In this document: positions 33,249-40,412 of the stretch, piece after piece
Numbering within the stretch: position 1 is the first letter of the stretch
Layout: each line of letters starts with the position of its first letter
Source: Candidatus Harrisonbacteria bacterium CG10_big_fil_rev_8_21_14_0_10_40_38
Lineage (GTDB): Bacteria > Patescibacteriota > Minisyncoccia > UBA6257 > 1-14-0-10-40-38
Assembly (NCBI GenBank): GCA_002773535.1
Contig: PFAZ01000001.1
Location: forward strand, 154,806-218,805
Direction of reading: 5' to 3'
DNA length: 64,000 nucleotides
The notes under the pieces: generated by a model
Seen by the model: only the letters and a program-made list of their open reading frames with translations
Told to the model about the DNA's origin: nothing
The model's database searches: none
Made by a program: the position numbers and the translations under genes

Positions 33249-33274
33249 AACCTAATTATAACAAATTATTTAAG

Positions 33275-33346
33275 AGCCAGCGGTGGGAATTGAACCCACG
33301 ACCTTTGCTTTACGAAAGCACTGCTCTGCCTCTGAGCTACGCTGGC
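33275..33346 (-). tRNA. tRNA-Thr (anticodon CGT)
   Basis: GCCAGCG acceptor / CGCTGGC + T discriminator; D arm GCTC-AGAGGCA-GAGC; anticodon loop TTCGTAA; T arm GTGGG-TTCAATT-CCCAC. Confidence 0.75.
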
Positions 33347-33864: not shown

Positions 33865-34794
33865 CTAAACTCCACATCCGCTTCCACTTTTTTGTGTTGG
33901 AGAAGAAACCTGGCTCACAATATTGCGATATCCCGAACCGCTTGAATATCCTGAGTCAAGAATCGCTCTTGGATCCGCATCCTTCCATGCGATACCCTTC
34001 GAATCGAGATAAGTCGCGATTGTTGTATATGCATCCGGAAACCAGTACGAATTAACCCTAAGCGCAATTTTATACATCTCATCTTCAGAAAGGCCCTGCG
34101 AAGCCATAAGCTCAAGAAGTCCAAGCATAGCCATGCCATGATTACAATCCGGAAAGTGAGTTGGGTTATTACAACACGGACGGAAAATATGTTTACTCAT
34201 TTCCTCAACCATTCCCTGTTCATCTGCAGTAAGAGAAATAAGACGATGCATACTATAGTGATCCATGACATTACCACGCGCAAGAGTCCAACCCCCTGTA
34301 GAAGCAAAGTTTTCAGCCCCTCCATATTGCGGGTCAACCATCGGGCCTGAATCAAGAATTTCGTTTTTTGTCGCAAGTCCCAAAGCCCAGAAAAGATTTA
34401 AAAGAAAACCGGAATTTAAAGAATTCATGGCTATAGAGTCGTTATTCGGGTTATTGATCAGATCCCACTCCCTGTCAGTGATACCACCTCTTCTTTCGTA
34501 TAAAGCGGAAAACTTTTCCTTGTCAATAACACCAAGTTCAGTAAGACGCACTCCAAGATCTCCCCACTCAACAGGAAGTATAAAATCTTTTGCTGGTATA
34601 ACAGCGTCTTCAATTAATTCCGCTTTTGAAATTTCGGAATTGCCAACTTTATCTGTTGCGACCGAATTACGCTCATTTATATATATGAACGTCCCGGCAA
34701 TAATCATCGAAGAAATAATTATGCTACGCGAAAATAATCGAAAAGCGCTTTCCCGAGATAAATTTGATTCTTGCATATATTTATTTTTCATCAC
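33865..34794 (-). CDS. membrane-anchored secreted protein with CC...C...C cluster
   Basis: N-terminal TM anchor; PCCNNPTHFPDCNHG and a C-terminal GSGCGV; no family assigned. Confidence 0.5.
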   Translation of the reverse strand: MMKNKYMQESNLSRESAFRLFSRSIIISSMIIAGTFIYINERNSVATDKVGNSEISKAELIEDAVIPAKDFILPVEWGDLGVRLTELGVIDKEKFSALYERRGGITDREWDLINNPNNDSIAMNSLNSGFLLNLFWALGLATKNEILDSGPMVDPQYGGAENFASTGGWTLARGNVMDHYSMHRLISLTADEQGMVEEMSKHIFRPCCNNPTHFPDCNHGMAMLGLLELMASQGLSEDEMYKIALRVNSYWFPDAYTTIATYLDSKGIAWKDADPRAILDSGYSSGSGYRNIVSQVSSPTQKSGSGCGV

Positions 34795-35317
34795 AACAAT
34801 CGACGAGTTTACTAATTAAGTCTTCAAAATCCCAAGGGTTTTTATTATTTACATCACCAGCCTTAGAGTCATCAATATGAGGAATAGAGACGAGTTTCAG
34901 ACGTACCGCCCAAAAAAGTGAATATGTGCGATAAGCACGATCAAACATATTTTTAGCTTTTTCTTTCAATCCATCAGACTGCAATTTTGTTCCAACCTCA
35001 ATAAGTCTCATCGTCGCCGCAAGAAGATGTTTGGAAATACACCACGTCTCTCCTTCATGAGCGCTGATCATTGTACCAAGAAGATCCTTTCTCAAAGACC
35101 TTACCTCATTTAGCAAGTCAAAGTATTCCGGCTTATGTGTTTTTACACCCGTAAAAAAGAAGTGTTCCTCAAGACTGATAAGGTTCATAACAGCGAGGCT
35201 CAAGTCTTCCTCAGTAGAAAGATCAACCCCACTATTTTTTTGAGCCTCTTTAACATTCTCAAGCAGTTTCTTAAATCGCTCATCATGTACATGAGCAGAA
35301 GAATTTTTTGTTGTCAT
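34781..35317 (-). CDS. hypothetical protein (ends ...VDCCDEK), overlaps downstream gene by 14 bp
   Basis: 178-aa helical protein; translationally coupled to the 33865 gene. Confidence 0.45.
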   Translation of the reverse strand: MTTKNSSAHVHDERFKKLLENVKEAQKNSGVDLSTEEDLSLAVMNLISLEEHFFFTGVKTHKPEYFDLLNEVRSLRKDLLGTMISAHEGETWCISKHLLAATMRLIEVGTKLQSDGLKEKAKNMFDRAYRTYSLFWAVRLKLVSIPHIDDSKAGDVNNKNPWDFEDLISKLVDCCDEK

Positions 35318-35323
35318 TTTAGT

Positions 35324-36106
35324 TTAAAAGAGAAAAATAATAATTCCGAGCAAAACCATTGCAAGACCACTCCATAGTTTCATAGCCAAAGTATTGCTCT
35401 TTTTCCAAGTTTGGATTCGTTCAACAAACTTTGCATTACTGGCAATCAGCAAAATAATAACTAGCGGCAAAACAAAAATCGCATTATACAGAAACAGATA
35501 CCCTAAACCCACGGTATATGTAGTGCTGTCATGAAGCAGACCCAAAACCATCAAGTATGGCCCTCCTGTACAGGGAAATTCGCACAGACCAACAAGTAAA
35601 CCTAAAAGAAACGCGGTTGGTATAGAAGCGTGCTCCATAAGACGCGCCATTGCTGAATGCGCCGCATGAGGAATGCGAAACCTAATAGGAAAAGATGGAA
35701 AAACTCCTGCAAGAAAATTAAACATTCCAAGAACAACCAAAAGCAAAGCTCCCACCTTGGCCATAAAATGTGGTGTATTAAAGAAATGAAGAGCGTGAAC
35801 AATCCCAAGCCCAATCAAAAAATACACAACAAAAAGACCTAAAATATACACGGCTCCGATTTTCAGAATGCCAGAACGCATTTTTCCGAGCGAAAGTAGA
35901 AAAGCGATAGTTAGAAGAAGAATTCCAAATGCGCAAGGATTAATGCTGTCTATAAGAGCGGCGATACTAACAAGTGGCAAAAGCCACGTTCCACCACGAC
36001 TAACATCCCAGATAAACGCTGAACTGGATGGCACAGATTTTAGAACTATAACCGATCCAAAAATAAAAACTCCAACAATAATCGAGATAAGTAATGTTTT
36101 ATTCAT
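35324..36106 (-). CDS. DsbD/CcdA-like polytopic membrane thiol-disulfide protein
   Basis: INPCAFG and CEFPCTGGP Cys motifs within TM helices; about seven TMs. Confidence 0.5.
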   Translation of the reverse strand: MNKTLLISIIVGVFIFGSVIVLKSVPSSSAFIWDVSRGGTWLLPLVSIAALIDSINPCAFGILLLTIAFLLSLGKMRSGILKIGAVYILGLFVVYFLIGLGIVHALHFFNTPHFMAKVGALLLVVLGMFNFLAGVFPSFPIRFRIPHAAHSAMARLMEHASIPTAFLLGLLVGLCEFPCTGGPYLMVLGLLHDSTTYTVGLGYLFLYNAIFVLPLVIILLIASNAKFVERIQTWKKSNTLAMKLWSGLAMVLLGIIIFLF

Positions 36107-36111
36107 ACAAA

Positions 36112-36609
36112 TTAGGGCGTAACTATTGCATGAAATTTAAGTTCAACAGGGTTATTCGCATCATTCTCAATCGTCACAACCCTGTTTACCTGCCCGACAC
36201 CAGCAGGACCATGGGCAGCAGGATCAAAGACAACATCAACTATCGCTTCATCACCTAAATCAAGAGTTTGATCTACTCGGGGAATTATCCCGTGACCACG
36301 CATTCCAAAAGGACCAAATCTCTCACCAGCAATCTGAAGAGTCGCAGAAGTGCACATACACGATGTATAAAACTTTCTAATAACAACAGGCGAAGCTCCA
36401 ACATTTTTTAACACGAATTTATGCGACACCACACCACTACTCATTGATATCGTGCCAAAATCAAAGTAATTAGAATCAACAACCGTAAGAGAACCAGTGC
36501 CATTTTGAGATGAGCCAGACGACACTCCGCTCACATCACCGCCGGCAAGCAAAAGAACAATTCCCAACGCCGCAGCGCCAAGAAAAATTCCTATAATATT
36601 TTTTTGCAT
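36112..36609 (-). CDS. DUF1573-family secreted protein
   Basis: Signal peptide; the TSCMCT motif within a beta-rich ~120-aa domain is typical of DUF1573. Confidence 0.6.
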   Translation of the reverse strand: MQKNIIGIFLGAAALGIVLLLAGGDVSGVSSGSSQNGTGSLTVVDSNYFDFGTISMSSGVVSHKFVLKNVGASPVVIRKFYTSCMCTSATLQIAGERFGPFGMRGHGIIPRVDQTLDLGDEAIVDVVFDPAAHGPAGVGQVNRVVTIENDANNPVELKFHAIVTP

Positions 36610-36723
36610 TTTTTAGATAAATAAAGATAAAAAGTCCCCAAAAAAAGGAGAAGAAATACTCGCGCGTAAAAAATGATTTCGATCGACTTATCCGCTAAAA
36701 AAGCGAAAAAAAGGAAACCGGAT

Positions 36724-37122
36724 TTAGGCGCGTAAAAAATACGGCGGACTGGTTTTATAAAAAGAGAGCCACAAAATAAAATCACAAAAGAAAACTATAA
36801 TACTCGAAAATACAATTCGTAAAAAATAAAAAGCTTTTGCGGAAAAAAACAAAATAATAAACCAAAGCAAAAAAGAAAGAGTTAGCAAAACAGATAAATT
36901 TATAAAAATTAGAAAAGGCTGCACCAATAAAATCTGCGCGAAACTTTTAAATACTCCTAAATGAAATTTAAGATAACTAAAAACATTTCCCTCGGGACAA
37001 TCAACTCCATTCATAGACGCTGCAATGCAATCACTATGATTCATGACACCATGAAAAAAAGGAGAGAATGTAGACAAAAAGATAAAGCTATAAAAAAGTA
37101 AAATTGATAAAAAATATTTCAT
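36724..37122 (-). CDS. small membrane protein with Cys/His/Met cluster (tentative)
   Basis: HGVMNHSDCIAASMNGVDCPEGN between TM helices; immediately downstream of the Cu-ATPase; AT-rich, so coding status is uncertain. Confidence 0.3.
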   Translation of the reverse strand: MKYFLSILLFYSFIFLSTFSPFFHGVMNHSDCIAASMNGVDCPEGNVFSYLKFHLGVFKSFAQILLVQPFLIFINLSVLLTLSFLLWFIILFFSAKAFYFLRIVFSSIIVFFCDFILWLSFYKTSPPYFLRA

Positions 37123-37126
37123 AAAA

Positions 37127-39160
37127 CTAATATGTTAGTTCAACTCGTTTCAATAAAAGCGCATTAAAAACAACGATCGCGGTAGACACACTCATAAGCA
37201 ACGCCCCAATTTCCGGACGCAAAAAGAAACCAAAAGAGGCAAACACTCCTGCAGCGGCGGGGATCGCGACCACATTATATCCAAGCGCCCAGAAAAGATT
37301 TTCGATCATCTTCTGATACACCCGTCTTGCAAGCACAACCAGACGCACAACATCTTGCGGATTGTTTCGCATAAGAACAACATCCCCCGCTTCGACAGCG
37401 ACATCCGTACCCGCGCCAATAGCTATACCAACATCAGCTTGCGTAAGAGCAGGCGCATCATTGATACCATCTCCAACCATCAGAACCACATGGCCTTTAC
37501 CCTGAAGCGATTTTACATGAGAATATTTTTCTTCCGGCAAAACATGCGAAAAATAAGTATCGATACCAAGTTCATTCGACACGTTTTTTGCCACAATCTC
37601 GTTATCCCCCGTAAGCAAAGCAACTTTTACACCAAGCGAATGCAAAGCTGTAACCGCTTCATAAGATTCGGCTTTTATAGTATCAGCAAGGGCAATAACT
37701 CCTATTATCTTTTTCTTATCAGAAACAAATACAACCGTATGACCTTTTGATGAAAAAGCATTTGCCTGCTGCATAGCTTCATCAGTCGAAATTCCCAAAT
37801 CACTCATAAGAGAAGAATTTCCAACAGAATATTTTGAACCTAAAATATTTCCCCAAATTCCCTTTCCGGAAAAATTATGAAATTCATCAACGTCATCAAT
37901 ATTTATACCCTTATCCTTTGCATGCCTCGCGATAGACTGCGCAATAACGTGCGAGGAATTGGTTTCAAGCGAAGCCGCGATACGCAATATATCTTCACCA
38001 TTAACTTCATCGCCAAATGACACAACACCCGAAACACCAAATTCCCCCTTCGTCAGAGTTCCTGTTTTATCAAACACAACATAATCAGCTTTTTTTATCA
38101 CTTCAAGTTTTGCAAGATTTTTTATAAAAAGTCCGTTCTTTACCGCAAGAGATGTCGCAATCGTGGTAACAGTAGGTATCGCAAGGCCGAGGGCATGCGG
38201 ACACGCTATCACAAGCACCGTTATAGCAAGAGTCAGCGCAAATACAAAAGGCTTCCCAATGACAAACAACCATATAACAATAGTCAGCAATGAAACCCCC
38301 AGAGCGGTAAAAGTGAGAACACGCGAAGCTTTATCAGCTAGTTTTTGTGATCTCGGTTTTGTAGCCTGCGCTTTTGCGATTAGCGTCTGAATTTGACCCA
38401 CGGTTGAATGCTCACCAACTTTAGTAAGTTGTATCGTAAGTGATCCATCTAAAACAGACGATCCCGCAGTAGCGCTGTCCCCTGCATTTTTTGAAATAGG
38501 CGTTGACTCCCCACTTATGAGAGACTCATCAACGCTTGAAGTTCCTTTCAGAACAACACCATCGGCAGGTATCTTTTCCCCCGATTTTACCAAAACAACG
38601 TCCCCCTCTCTTAGTTCAGAAACAGAAACATCCTCCGTCACATTTCCCGAGATTCTATGTGCAGCTTTAGGTAAAAGTCTTGCCACCTCGGAAAGAGAAT
38701 TCCCCGCCGCCACGCTGGATTTTGCCTCCAAATAATGTCCAAAAAGTAGCACCCAAATAAGAGTTCCTATCTCAAGATAAAACACAACACCGAGAGCGGG
38801 AATAAGTGTAGAAGCAACTGAAAATAAAAACCCAGACCCAACAGCAAGCGACACAAGCGTCATCATGCCAAACGATCGCATCATTATTTCATGTCTTGCA
38901 TGCTTAAAGAAGACAAGAGAAAACCAAAAAATAACTGTTGCAATAGCAAGCTGAATCCATTTATTTAAACTTAAAACCGGTACACCCAAAAAATCCGCAA
39001 AACCTTGTTTAGCAAGAACCAAGGGAATGAGAAGTAAGGTTACTATCCAAAACCTACGCAAAAAATCACTCGCCGAGCCATGAGATATAGCACCGGCATA
39101 TGACACATTAGCATGCGACATTGCATGAGCATGTGACGAATTATGATGCATATGCTCCAT
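37127..39160 (-). CDS. copB: heavy-metal P1B-type ATPase, CopB-like (His-rich N-terminus, CPH motif)
   Basis: N-terminal MEHMHHNSSHAHAMSHA; TM CPHALGL; DKTGTLT; GDGINDAP. Confidence 0.85.
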   Translation of the reverse strand: MEHMHHNSSHAHAMSHANVSYAGAISHGSASDFLRRFWIVTLLLIPLVLAKQGFADFLGVPVLSLNKWIQLAIATVIFWFSLVFFKHARHEIMMRSFGMMTLVSLAVGSGFLFSVASTLIPALGVVFYLEIGTLIWVLLFGHYLEAKSSVAAGNSLSEVARLLPKAAHRISGNVTEDVSVSELREGDVVLVKSGEKIPADGVVLKGTSSVDESLISGESTPISKNAGDSATAGSSVLDGSLTIQLTKVGEHSTVGQIQTLIAKAQATKPRSQKLADKASRVLTFTALGVSLLTIVIWLFVIGKPFVFALTLAITVLVIACPHALGLAIPTVTTIATSLAVKNGLFIKNLAKLEVIKKADYVVFDKTGTLTKGEFGVSGVVSFGDEVNGEDILRIAASLETNSSHVIAQSIARHAKDKGINIDDVDEFHNFSGKGIWGNILGSKYSVGNSSLMSDLGISTDEAMQQANAFSSKGHTVVFVSDKKKIIGVIALADTIKAESYEAVTALHSLGVKVALLTGDNEIVAKNVSNELGIDTYFSHVLPEEKYSHVKSLQGKGHVVLMVGDGINDAPALTQADVGIAIGAGTDVAVEAGDVVLMRNNPQDVVRLVVLARRVYQKMIENLFWALGYNVVAIPAAAGVFASFGFFLRPEIGALLMSVSTAIVVFNALLLKRVELTY

Positions 39161-39163
39161 AAA

Positions 39164-39631
39164 CTATTTTTTTAGTAGAAACTTAACTAACGCAAAAATC
39201 GACAGGATAAGAAATATCCATACAAGCCCAAACGTAACCGTAAAATAGGCTGAATTCCACCCAGAATTGGCATAATTACCCATGCCATAAGGCGACATCA
39301 TAGACATCATCGGCATTGTATAAGGAGTGCCGGAATAACCGGACCAGCATCCAAGATATGATCGCCCCATATTGATATGCGCCAACCTTAGGCTTTCAGA
39401 CCCCTCACCACCCATCATATTATCCATTGCCTCATGTTGATCCTCATCAGGAATCATAACCCTCATATAAGCATCACCTAAAAACTCAAACTGATCATCG
39501 GTAACCTTCTTACAATCAACATCATCGAGGCTTGAAATGTTCTGAAAAGCGTAAATAGATTCTAAAGCTTCATTTAATTCAGCGCTTTGAACATTTCCAA
39601 TATAACTATTATATCCACCCATCATGCCCAT
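39164..39631 (-). CDS. Met-rich membrane-anchored protein, putative Cu(I)-binding
   Basis: MGMMGGY...MDNMMGGEG...YTMPMMSMMSPYGMG plus a C-terminal TM; position between csoR and copB. Confidence 0.5.
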   Translation of the reverse strand: MGMMGGYNSYIGNVQSAELNEALESIYAFQNISSLDDVDCKKVTDDQFEFLGDAYMRVMIPDEDQHEAMDNMMGGEGSESLRLAHINMGRSYLGCWSGYSGTPYTMPMMSMMSPYGMGNYANSGWNSAYFTVTFGLVWIFLILSIFALVKFLLKK

Positions 39632-39701
39632 CTGAGCAAATGCCGTACCTGAAAAGAAAAATAAACCAACGACAAACAGTGAAAAAAATATCTTTTTTAT
39701 A

Positions 39702-39974
39702 TTATTTATTAGATAAATTATAAACCTTTATAAGTTCCTTAACCGCCTTTTCATTTTCCTTTTTATTTGTCATCTGCTCAGCAACATGAGTACGCAAATG
39801 ATTTTCTAAAAGAAATGAATCAAGGCTTTTAAGCGACCTTTGAATCGAACGGGATTGTTCAAGTAATTCCGGGCAATAAACTTCATTTTCTATCGATTTA
39901 ATAAGTCCATCTATCTGACCCTTAAGTATTTTAGCTCTATGCAGAGCCCTTTTTTTAAGTAATTGATCTACCAT
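39702..39974 (-). CDS. csoR: CsoR/RcnR-family metal-sensing repressor
   Basis: C-terminal 90 aa match the DUF156 helical bundle (ALHRAKILKGQIDGL...YCPELLEQSRSIQRSL). Start moved to the internal ATG at 39974 because the ORF-track N-terminus is read through tRNA-Gly. Confidence 0.7.
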   Translation of the reverse strand: MVDQLLKKRALHRAKILKGQIDGLIKSIENEVYCPELLEQSRSIQRSLKSLDSFLLENHLRTHVAEQMTNKKENEKAVKELIKVYNLSNK

Positions 39975-40030
39975 ACATAAATAGCATATACCCCTATACC
40001 CTATTTGACAATATAAACATGTGGATAATC

Positions 40031-40104
40031 TTGGAGCGGGTAACGGGAATCGGACCCGTGTCTCAACCTTGGGAAGGTCGCGTACTGCCACTGTACTATA
40101 CCCG
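40031..40104 (-). tRNA. tRNA-Gly (anticodon CCC), CCA encoded
   Basis: GCGGGTA/TACCCGC acceptor; D arm GTAC-AGTGGCA-GTAC; anticodon loop TTCCCAA; T arm ACGGG-TCCGATT-CCCGT; ends TCCA. Confidence 0.75.
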
Positions 40105-40412
40105 CATACCAATCTTTATATCACCACTTTCACTTACATTTCAACACAAAAAACTAGCTCTGTTCTATTTGATTTTATAAATCAAATAGAACTACCTTAA
40201 GTCCAACTACGCTAAAAACGCACAATGAAAATGAATTACACAAAACACCTCTGTATATTATTTTTCGAAACTCCGCAGGTAATTCGGCTTGGTTCCCCGC
40301 ATTACGGGGACGAATTACCGAGGACAAGCAAGTGAGCCGCTGGAGCGAACGCAGCGTGTTGAGAAAAGTAATATGGAGAGGTGTTTAATTCAAAAAATAA
40401 AACCACCAATTT

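Follow-up and report, generated by a model that had tools for sequence, protein, structure and literature searches.

Introduction

The closest described system to the locus reported here is the copB(copX)-copL gene pair of Staphylococcus aureus, which is regulated by CsoR and in which CopL is an extracellular, membrane-associated, copper-binding lipoprotein. Extracytoplasmic copper handling is well described in proteobacteria (CusF, CopC, CueO) and only recently in Firmicutes (CopL, which carries DUF1541 domains). Our literature searches on extracytoplasmic copper handling and copper systems in the Candidate Phyla Radiation and in DPANN archaea, groups that differ in their cell envelopes and in their host-dependent lifestyles, found no paper. 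Here we describe a locus in a 64,000-nucleotide stretch (hereafter, the window) of the genome of a tiny groundwater bacterium, a member of Candidatus Harrisonbacteria (contig PFAZ01000001.1, positions 154,806 to 218,805), in which genes for a CsoR-family repressor (csoR), a methionine-rich (Met-rich) membrane protein, a P1B-type ATPase (copB), and a 132-aa membrane protein follow one another on the minus strand. Four further genes lie downstream, and code for a DUF1573 protein, a CcdA/DsbD-like membrane protein, and proteins of 178 aa (p178) and 309 aa (p309) that belong to no assigned family (Table 1).

The window locus and copB(copX)-copL have much in common. In each, a P1B-3 ATPase that has a His-rich N-terminus is under repression by CsoR, and a gene beside that of the pump encodes an extracellular membrane-attached protein that is thought to bind exported or external copper. 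They differ in that CopL is a lipoprotein, whereas the Met-rich protein has a signal peptide, a C-terminal transmembrane (TM) anchor, and an all-helical core without a Pfam match, and in that csoR is located elsewhere in the S. aureus genome but heads the operon in the window. CusF, CopC/PcoC, PcoE/SilE, CopM and the Met-rich domain of CueO likewise carry Met/His motifs on the oxidising face of the membrane and come from copper-induced operons, and Met-rich domains are described as transient Cu(I) recruiters, consistent with the Met-rich protein being a tethered acceptor.

We propose, with a probability of about 0.65, that the locus is a CsoR-repressed copper efflux operon that includes a membrane-tethered, extracellular Cu(I)-binding partner of the pump. 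The pump and the repressor are themselves ordinary, textbook proteins, and the interest of the locus lies in the unnamed accessory family, an apparent ATA start codon, a conserved operator, and linked thiol-redox genes. It ties a widespread, uncharacterised family to copper pumps and a copper sensor, and so supplies a concrete biochemical hypothesis for a 'hypothetical protein'.

Results and Discussion

A conserved Met-rich protein with a candidate metal site

Within the ORF called for the Met-rich gene (39631-39164), internal Met residues account for 9.1% of the total, the highest value among the 67 long open reading frames (ORFs) of the window (median 1.7%). A first-pass annotation, made from the sequence alone, had described a 155-aa Met-rich protein with a C-terminal TM helix; the motifs and the helix are present, but the length is incorrect, and the protein is 178 aa long when its signal peptide is included. 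The mature protein has six MxxM and four MM motifs and a C-terminal hydrophobic helix, and it is predicted to fold into a four-helix core, over most of which (residues 40-118) the AlphaFold2 predicted local distance difference test score (pLDDT) is greater than 90. A disordered Met/Gly-rich tether (residues ~120-148) lies ahead of the TM anchor.

In an alignment of 120 sequences, C63, M79, M96, C118 and a GGEGS loop are invariant, and H89, M92, H108 and M111 are each conserved in at least 98% of members. The conserved His and Met residues make up the patterns HxxMxxxM and HxxM, each along one face of a helix. Such spacing is typical of Cu(I) sites at oxidising membrane surfaces, and the residues may form a metal site. 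The window protein bears all of the family-defining residues together with the signal peptide and the C-terminal TM helix, with ATA instead of ATG as its start.

The family is unnamed, widespread, and previously unstudied. A word-indexed search gave 199 matches, and 304 species-level genomes encode a relative; an exhaustive profile search, with clustering at 50% identity, gave at least 1,173 clusters, and 792 of these have E<=1e-10. The ORF is thus conserved in relatives, and the concern raised in the first-pass annotation that it could be spurious is removed. The family is spread over many lineages of Patescibacteria and is also represented in Aenigmatarchaeota and in a few Spirochaetota; all members are 150-265 aa long with a signal peptide, the core, a Met/Gly-rich tether, and a TM helix. 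Some homologues carry an extra cytoplasmic SHOCT domain, and this fixes the topology of the C-terminal anchor. Searches of Pfam, NCBIfam, and PDB sequences with the Met-rich protein gave no match.

The Met-rich gene appears to start with ATA

The 155-aa ORF is a shortened call. Its frame is open upstream and encodes IKKIFFSLFVVGLFFFSGTAFA followed by QMGMMG, and the added segment has the features of a signal peptide: two Lys residues in the n-region, then a hydrophobic stretch, and A-x-A as the cleavage site immediately before QMGMMG. It can be aligned with the signal peptides of homologues (MKKI...ASAQ), but it contains no ATG, GTG or TTG codon, and its first codon, which occupies the position of the start Met in 85% of the 120 aligned family members, is ATA (Ile; 39700-39698). 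Four other assemblies (two from JGI, and one each from ENA and Logan) also have ATA here, so the codon is not an assembly error. The public annotation begins at the internal ATG at 39631, 23 codons late, and omits the signal peptide.

ATA is a weak initiator in bacteria, and one explanation is that the Met-rich gene is crippled in this genome, an ATG to ATA change having disabled the signal peptide so that little protein is made, or so that a 155-aa form starting at M24 is cytoplasmic and tail-anchored. This would account for an ATA where homologues start with ATG, fixed in assemblies from several samples, and for the choice of the internal ATG in the public annotation. We consider it unlikely, since all 22 codons of the signal peptide are fully intact and near the family consensus. 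Furthermore, the ATA lies 1 nt past the csoR stop codon, a position that would permit re-initiation by the terminating ribosome, and every gene of the operon lacks a Shine-Dalgarno sequence, so that start selection is unusual here in any case. From this arrangement translation by re-initiation at the ATA is plausible, and likewise the use of ATA as the start codon of the Met-rich gene.

Met-rich genes are linked to copper ATPases and csoR

The gene neighborhoods of Met-rich family members were compared using 84 loci, of which 80 remained after removal of redundancy. Among these 80, a P1B ATPase gene is present in the flank in 53, within 2 kb in 39, and adjacent on the same strand in 25; the corresponding numbers for csoR are 32, 21 and 14, the last of these being directly upstream. 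The pumps encoded beside Met-rich genes have either CPH (at least 32) or CPC (16) motifs, and are therefore copper pumps. This linkage agrees with the ligands of the regulator, the operator, and the P1B-3 motifs described below, and all of these bear out the first-pass description of the locus as a copper-handling module.

Of the 84 loci, 20 contain a gene for a cupredoxin-like (blue copper) protein, which is often an immediate neighbor of the Met-rich gene, and P1B ATPases can serve cuproprotein maturation, as do CcoI/FixI and PacS/CtaA. Both points are in accord with the Met-rich protein being a delivery chaperone, which takes copper from the pump to secreted copper proteins such as cupredoxins, and not a detoxifier. 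We nonetheless regard this role as improbable. The Met-rich gene is directly under CsoR in the 14 loci noted above and in the window, and direct control by CsoR implies that the gene is induced when copper is in excess, as detoxification genes typically are; moreover, there is no cupredoxin among the eight genes of the window block (33865-39974).

The loci are also rich in thiol-redox genes, with CcdA-like proteins encoded in 36, p309 relatives in 29, and DUF1573 proteins in 27 of the 80 non-redundant loci, and DsbA-like proteins and thioredoxin reductase in 14 and 17, respectively, of the 84. Taken together with the invariant Cys pair of the Met-rich protein, this is what would be seen if the protein were a surface redox buffer or envelope-stress protein, with sacrificial Met residues and a Cys pair acting as a thiol-redox substrate, that is merely co-induced with the pump and binds no metal specifically. 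However, the ordered HxxMxxxM and HxxM motifs on the core helices go beyond a general enrichment in Met, and the linkage of the gene is tightest to the ATPase and CsoR and not to the redox genes, and we think there is little chance that the protein is a redox buffer.

Other genes also recur near Met-rich genes, including those for membrane proteins with HCPLC and CVLC motifs and a BlaI/BlaR1-like pair. Examples of loci with these or with cupredoxin-like, DsbA-like, or thioredoxin reductase neighbors are L016, L019, L024, L071 and L079, and the recurrence extends to loci of DPANN archaea. Several public metagenome bins tagged 'uncultured Gammaproteobacteria' or 'Pseudomonadales' (e.g., L024, L026, L033 and L038) have a Patescibacteria-type neighborhood, and these labels may be unreliable.

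The pump is a CopB-type ATPase

The 677-aa ATPase matches PF00122 and PF00702 and has its highest-scoring model in the copper subfamily TIGR01511 (552 bits), and FDKTGTLT, GDGINDAP and SGES are all present in the translation. Its TM signature consists of CPH in TM4 (IACPHALGLAI), YN in TM5 (LGYNVV), and MSVST in TM6. The N-terminus, which begins MEHMHHNSSHAHAMSHAN, contains seven His residues among its first 50 and lacks CxxC over the first 150, so that both the His-rich N-terminus and the CPH motif noted in the first-pass annotation hold. The ATP-binding domain scores 260 bits against that of Archaeoglobus fulgidus CopB (3sky) and 198 bits against A. fulgidus CopA (AfCopA). The protein is thus a P1B-3, CopB-type ATPase and, judging from its family membership, would transport copper. 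It shares the CPH in TM4, the MSxST in TM6, and the His-rich N-terminal tail with A. fulgidus CopB and other P1B-3 ATPases, but differs from other P1B ATPases in that the SEHP motif of the nucleotide-binding domain reads SSHV in its clade. In this patescibacterial CopB clade (the window, L002, L009, L028, L036, and others) SEHP is replaced by SSHV or SSHI, with the His kept and the Pro lost.

The regulator is a CsoR of the x-C-H-H type

The 90-aa regulator scores 64.7 bits with PF02583 (E=1.1e-17; the cut-off is 22.8), in line with its earlier assignment to the CsoR family. Its best solved relatives are the CsoR proteins of Mycobacterium tuberculosis (2hh7) and Thermus thermophilus (3aai), the match to the latter being distant (35.9 bits, E=7.7e-08). 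Residues C34, H59 and H63 correspond in the alignment to C36, H61 and C65 of the M. tuberculosis protein, with one Cys replaced by His, and with the Cys-His-His set of the T. thermophilus protein. The second-shell residues Y33 and E80, which in CsoRs link Cu(I) binding to release of the DNA, are also kept, and are the same in 36 of the 37 other aligned sequences (35 CsoRs from the related loci and the M. tuberculosis and T. thermophilus references). The Cys/His metal ligands, the loss of which had been named in the first-pass annotation as a reason to doubt the assignment, are therefore retained. The x-C-H-H pattern defines the Thermus-type subgroup of CsoRs, which is considered to sense Cu(I), and the window protein is a CsoR of this type, predicted by homology to sense copper. 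It has the same Cys/His/His ligands and second-shell Tyr and Glu as T. thermophilus CsoR, but the pump next to it is a CopB and not a CopA with CopZ. Among the aligned CsoRs (related loci, window, and the two references) C-H-H is found in 19 and C-H-C in 16, and as both are encoded beside Met-rich genes, both variants serve the same neighborhood.

That the regulator senses nickel or cobalt, as RcnR does, or some other signal, with the pump exporting a metal other than copper, is very improbable: H-x3-H at the Y and Z positions is found in RcnR as well, a Z-position His may raise promiscuity, and none of the NCBIfam models for FrmR, RicR and RcnR comes near its cut-off, but the protein lacks His3, the W-position ligand of RcnR (it begins MVDQLL), its best PDB matches are the two copper sensors, it keeps the second-shell Tyr and Glu of CsoR, and the pump has copper-type CPH, YN and MSxST motifs and its top score with a copper subfamily model.

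A conserved operator is predicted upstream of csoR

An operator upstream of 39974, for which the first-pass annotation had proposed a search, is predicted there as a 24-bp palindrome, ATAGGGTATAGGGGTATATGCTAT, in which 10-bp inverted arms surround a GGGG tract. It spans the spacer and the -10 hexamer of a sigma-70-like promoter, the -35 hexamer of which has an equivalent, TTGACA, at the same place in relatives. The palindrome is present in a single copy in the window, where chance alone would give none, and is conserved 5' of csoR in at least eight of the related loci (L006, L007, L010, L011, L042, L067, L018 and L012), where the consensus is TTGACA-aATAGGrTATAGGGGTATAyCCTAT. The G-tract motif is found upstream of 10 of 37 csoR genes, compared with 6 of 1,188 other ORFs. 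The operator core has one exact match that is not in a csoR promoter; it falls within a tRNA-like stretch of L072 and is due to chance.

The predicted operator resembles published CsoR boxes, for example ATACCctggGTGGGTAT of S. aureus copX, and a pseudo-palindromic operator with a GC tract at the regulated promoter is a trait of the CsoR family; from the sequence, binding by the window CsoR is predicted. The operator sequence is particular to these Patescibacteria, a further difference from the T. thermophilus CsoR system, and the locus supplies a predicted operator for the little-studied x-C-H-H subgroup.

A DnaA-box-like 9-mer, TTATCCACA, precedes the promoter. Of the 24 exact copies in the 84 related loci, seven are located within 200 bp upstream of csoR, where ~0.16 would be expected. 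It is found upstream of csoR in L010, L011, L042, L067 and L002 as well, with varying spacing and orientation, and versions with one mismatch occur in further loci. The box may be a second protein-binding site, perhaps that of a second regulator.

A model for copper export and capture

A plausible model for the operon is as follows. When copper is absent, a tetramer of the 90-aa CsoR would, by homology, occupy the 24-bp palindrome and block transcription, and when Cu(I) binds at C34, H59' and H63', CsoR would leave the operator. The csoR, Met-rich, copB and 132-aa genes would then be transcribed as one unit. CopB, with its His-rich tail in the cytoplasm, would pump Cu(I) out of the cytoplasm, as its family does, and the Met-rich protein, exported by its signal peptide, would be anchored through its C-terminal helix on the outside of the membrane.

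We consider it probable that the Met-rich protein is tethered at the exit of the pump and there accepts or buffers Cu(I), the likeliest of the roles considered. It would offer flexible arms rich in Met (QMGMMG, with which the mature protein begins, PxxMPMM, and the Met/Gly tether) and a His/Met cluster in the core (M79, H89, M92, M96, H108 and M111), and C63 and C118 could either form a disulfide that holds the core or provide extra thiolate ligands. By binding the exported Cu(I), a role that its sequence and context suggest, it would prevent both re-entry and damage at the cell surface; the first-pass suggestion of a chaperone or sponge, drawn from the same kinds of evidence, fits such a role. 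The Cx9C membrane protein encoded by the 132-aa gene is possibly a part of the same exit and hand-over site, at which it too would bind copper received from the pump. The products of the four downstream genes (DUF1573, CcdA-like, p178 and p309) would, from their context, probably feed reducing power to surface thiols that are stressed by copper.

Several points weigh against this model. Copper binding by the Met-rich family is proposed from sequence and gene context, and the spatial clustering of its His and Met residues comes from helical periodicity only. The first-pass annotation had looked to CopC/PcoC, CusF and CopZ for relatives, but a profile search of all PDB sequences and fold searches revealed no likeness to known copper proteins, and homology to CopC/PcoC, CusF, CopK, CopM, CopL or CopZ is seen neither by sequence nor by fold; the Met-rich protein is therefore an analogue of the known chaperones and not a relative. 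About one third of the fetched loci have no ATPase gene in the flank, many of them on short contigs. As ATA is a poor initiator, the protein may be made at a low level, or from the internal ATG and without export. The Cu(I) specificity of x-C-H-H CsoRs has not been rigorously established. Finally, no second CsoR operator was found elsewhere in the window with up to three mismatches allowed, so there is none before the downstream genes and their co-regulation by CsoR is unsupported.

We also put forward, tentatively, a broader proposal in which the Met-rich protein is the founder of a structurally distinct class of tethered extracellular Cu(I) chaperones that are the standard partners of copper pumps in DPANN archaea and in the ultra-small Patescibacteria. 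The class would, together with the Cx9C protein and a surface thiol-reducing system, make up an envelope copper-defence island, with the Met-rich protein produced in this genome from a rare ATA start coupled to the csoR stop codon.

Extent and conservation of the locus

The first-pass annotation placed the module at 36724-40104; the genes are all there, but the conserved block goes on downstream to 33865, after which there is a tRNA-Thr gene (Table 1). The four genes from csoR to the 132-aa gene lie 1 to 4 nt apart, and a 114-bp gap containing a weak hairpin separates the 132-aa gene from the DUF1573 gene. The sequence of this gap differs among relatives, and a search for a conserved element between the two genes found none. 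The order of all eight genes is repeated in L009 (Uhrbacteria), and L002 has the same order without p178; the synteny is thus maintained between genomes with ATPases that are just 62-66% identical to that of the window.

Table 1. Coordinates of features of the copper locus in the window.
Feature	Position	Strand	Basis
tRNA-Gly (anticodon CCC)	40032..40105	minus	ARAGORN; Rfam RF00005, 63.9 bits
DnaA-box-like 9-mer TTATCCACA, 9 nt upstream of -35 hexamer	40020..40028	minus	
Promoter and operator region	40011-39981	minus	Consensus and motif scans
Sigma-70-like promoter (TTGTCA, 17-nt spacer, TATGCT)	39983..40011	minus	Consensus scan
Predicted CsoR operator ATAGGGTATAGGGGTATATGCTAT, 24 bp	39981..40004	minus	10-bp inverted arms around GGGG tract
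csoR, 90 aa	39702..39974	minus	PF02583
Met-rich protein gene, full form, 178 aa	39164..39700	minus	Homologue alignment
Predicted signal peptide IKKIFFSLFVVGLFFFSGTAFA, residues 1-22	39635..39700	minus	Homologue alignment and hydropathy peak
Predicted four-helix core domain, residues 40-118	39347..39583	minus	120-sequence alignment; AlphaFold2
Predicted C-terminal TM anchor, residues 150-177, then KK	39170..39253	minus	Hydropathy and AlphaFold2
copB, P1B-3 ATPase, 677 aa	37127..39160	minus	TIGR01511, motif census
132-aa membrane protein gene	36724..37122	minus	ORF and alignments of syntenic loci
Terminator-like hairpin, weak	36635..36651	minus	Consensus scan only
DUF1573 protein gene, 165 aa	36112..36609	minus	PF07610, E=1e-12
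CcdA/DsbD-like membrane protein gene, 260 aa	35324..36106	minus	Weak DsbD, ArsG and SfLAP matches and conservation
p178 gene, 178 aa, family unassigned	34781..35317	minus	Conservation
p309 gene, 309-aa membrane-anchored protein, family unassigned	33865..34794	minus	Conservation
tRNA-Thr	33274-33346		Beyond downstream end of block

The tRNA-Gly gene upstream of csoR, reported in the first-pass annotation, is present, and its cloverleaf with a CCC anticodon is confirmed, but it does not belong to the conserved module, as relatives have either different tRNA genes or no tRNA gene in the vicinity. Both ARAGORN and Rfam assign it to the minus strand, transcribed in the direction of the operon. The 136-aa csoR ORF was rightly regarded as having an artefactual start, its extension running through the tRNA and then the promoter. 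The extra codons had been described as all antisense to the tRNA, but the tRNA is on the csoR strand and is read in the sense direction, and only ~27 of the 46 codons overlap it, with the remainder corresponding to the promoter and operator. An Rfam scan of the window gave no RNA element besides the two tRNAs. The eight-gene block is bracketed by the tRNA-Thr and tRNA-Gly genes, and several of the related loci also have tRNAs close by. A mobile island between the two tRNAs was considered and rejected: GC content and skew show no anomaly and neither tRNA association nor tRNA identity is conserved in relatives, so there is no evidence for such an island.

The 132-aa Cx9C membrane protein

The further membrane protein that was noted downstream of the pump represents a real family, but a narrow one, with 17 clusters in a large database and members in 9 of the 84 loci. 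Its relatives were found only with an alignment built from syntenic loci, a word-indexed search with the single sequence having returned itself alone. Two Cys residues, C32 and C42 (Cx9C), are invariant, a W-L near the C-terminus is conserved, and nothing else is; by the positive-inside rule the Cys pair is predicted to be in an outward-facing loop. The AlphaFold2 model is uninformative, with a predicted template modelling score (pTM) of 0.31.

A linked, probable thiol-redox sub-operon

The tightly packed genes at 33865-36609 constitute a sub-operon that co-occurs with the Met-rich gene across Patescibacteria. The first encodes the DUF1573 protein, which has an invariant T-S-C-x-C-T; literature searches on DUF1573 and copper gave nothing relevant. 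The CcdA/DsbD-like protein, a putative thiol-disulfide transporter, matches SfLAP (27.7 against a cut-off of 35) and DsbD (E=0.0016) below the cut-offs. All of 41 homologues share its two membrane Cys residues (C58 and C179), and one of the two belongs to a P-C motif. Searches with p178 and p309 gave no Pfam, NCBIfam or PDB match. The former is found in seven related loci and has conserved EEH and WCIxKH motifs and a C-terminal CC, and the latter has a near-invariant FRPCCxNxxxFPDCNHGMA and a C-terminal CG.

The sub-operon is, from its context, probably a surface thiol-redox system that is linked to copper stress. As in the suppressor of copper sensitivity (Scs) and DsbD/CcdA pathways, a CcdA/DsbD-like protein is paired with exported Cys-motif proteins beside copper genes, a likening that draws on general knowledge of Scs, but DUF1573 (CxC), p309 (CC...C-x-H) and p178 are not thioredoxin-fold Scs proteins. 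In one related locus, from Candidatus Woesebacteria (L065, 8613-11615), a 1,000-aa ORF has a CcdA-like segment (residues 16-211) fused to a copper ATPase (residues 361-996), and this fusion suggests a functional link between the two.

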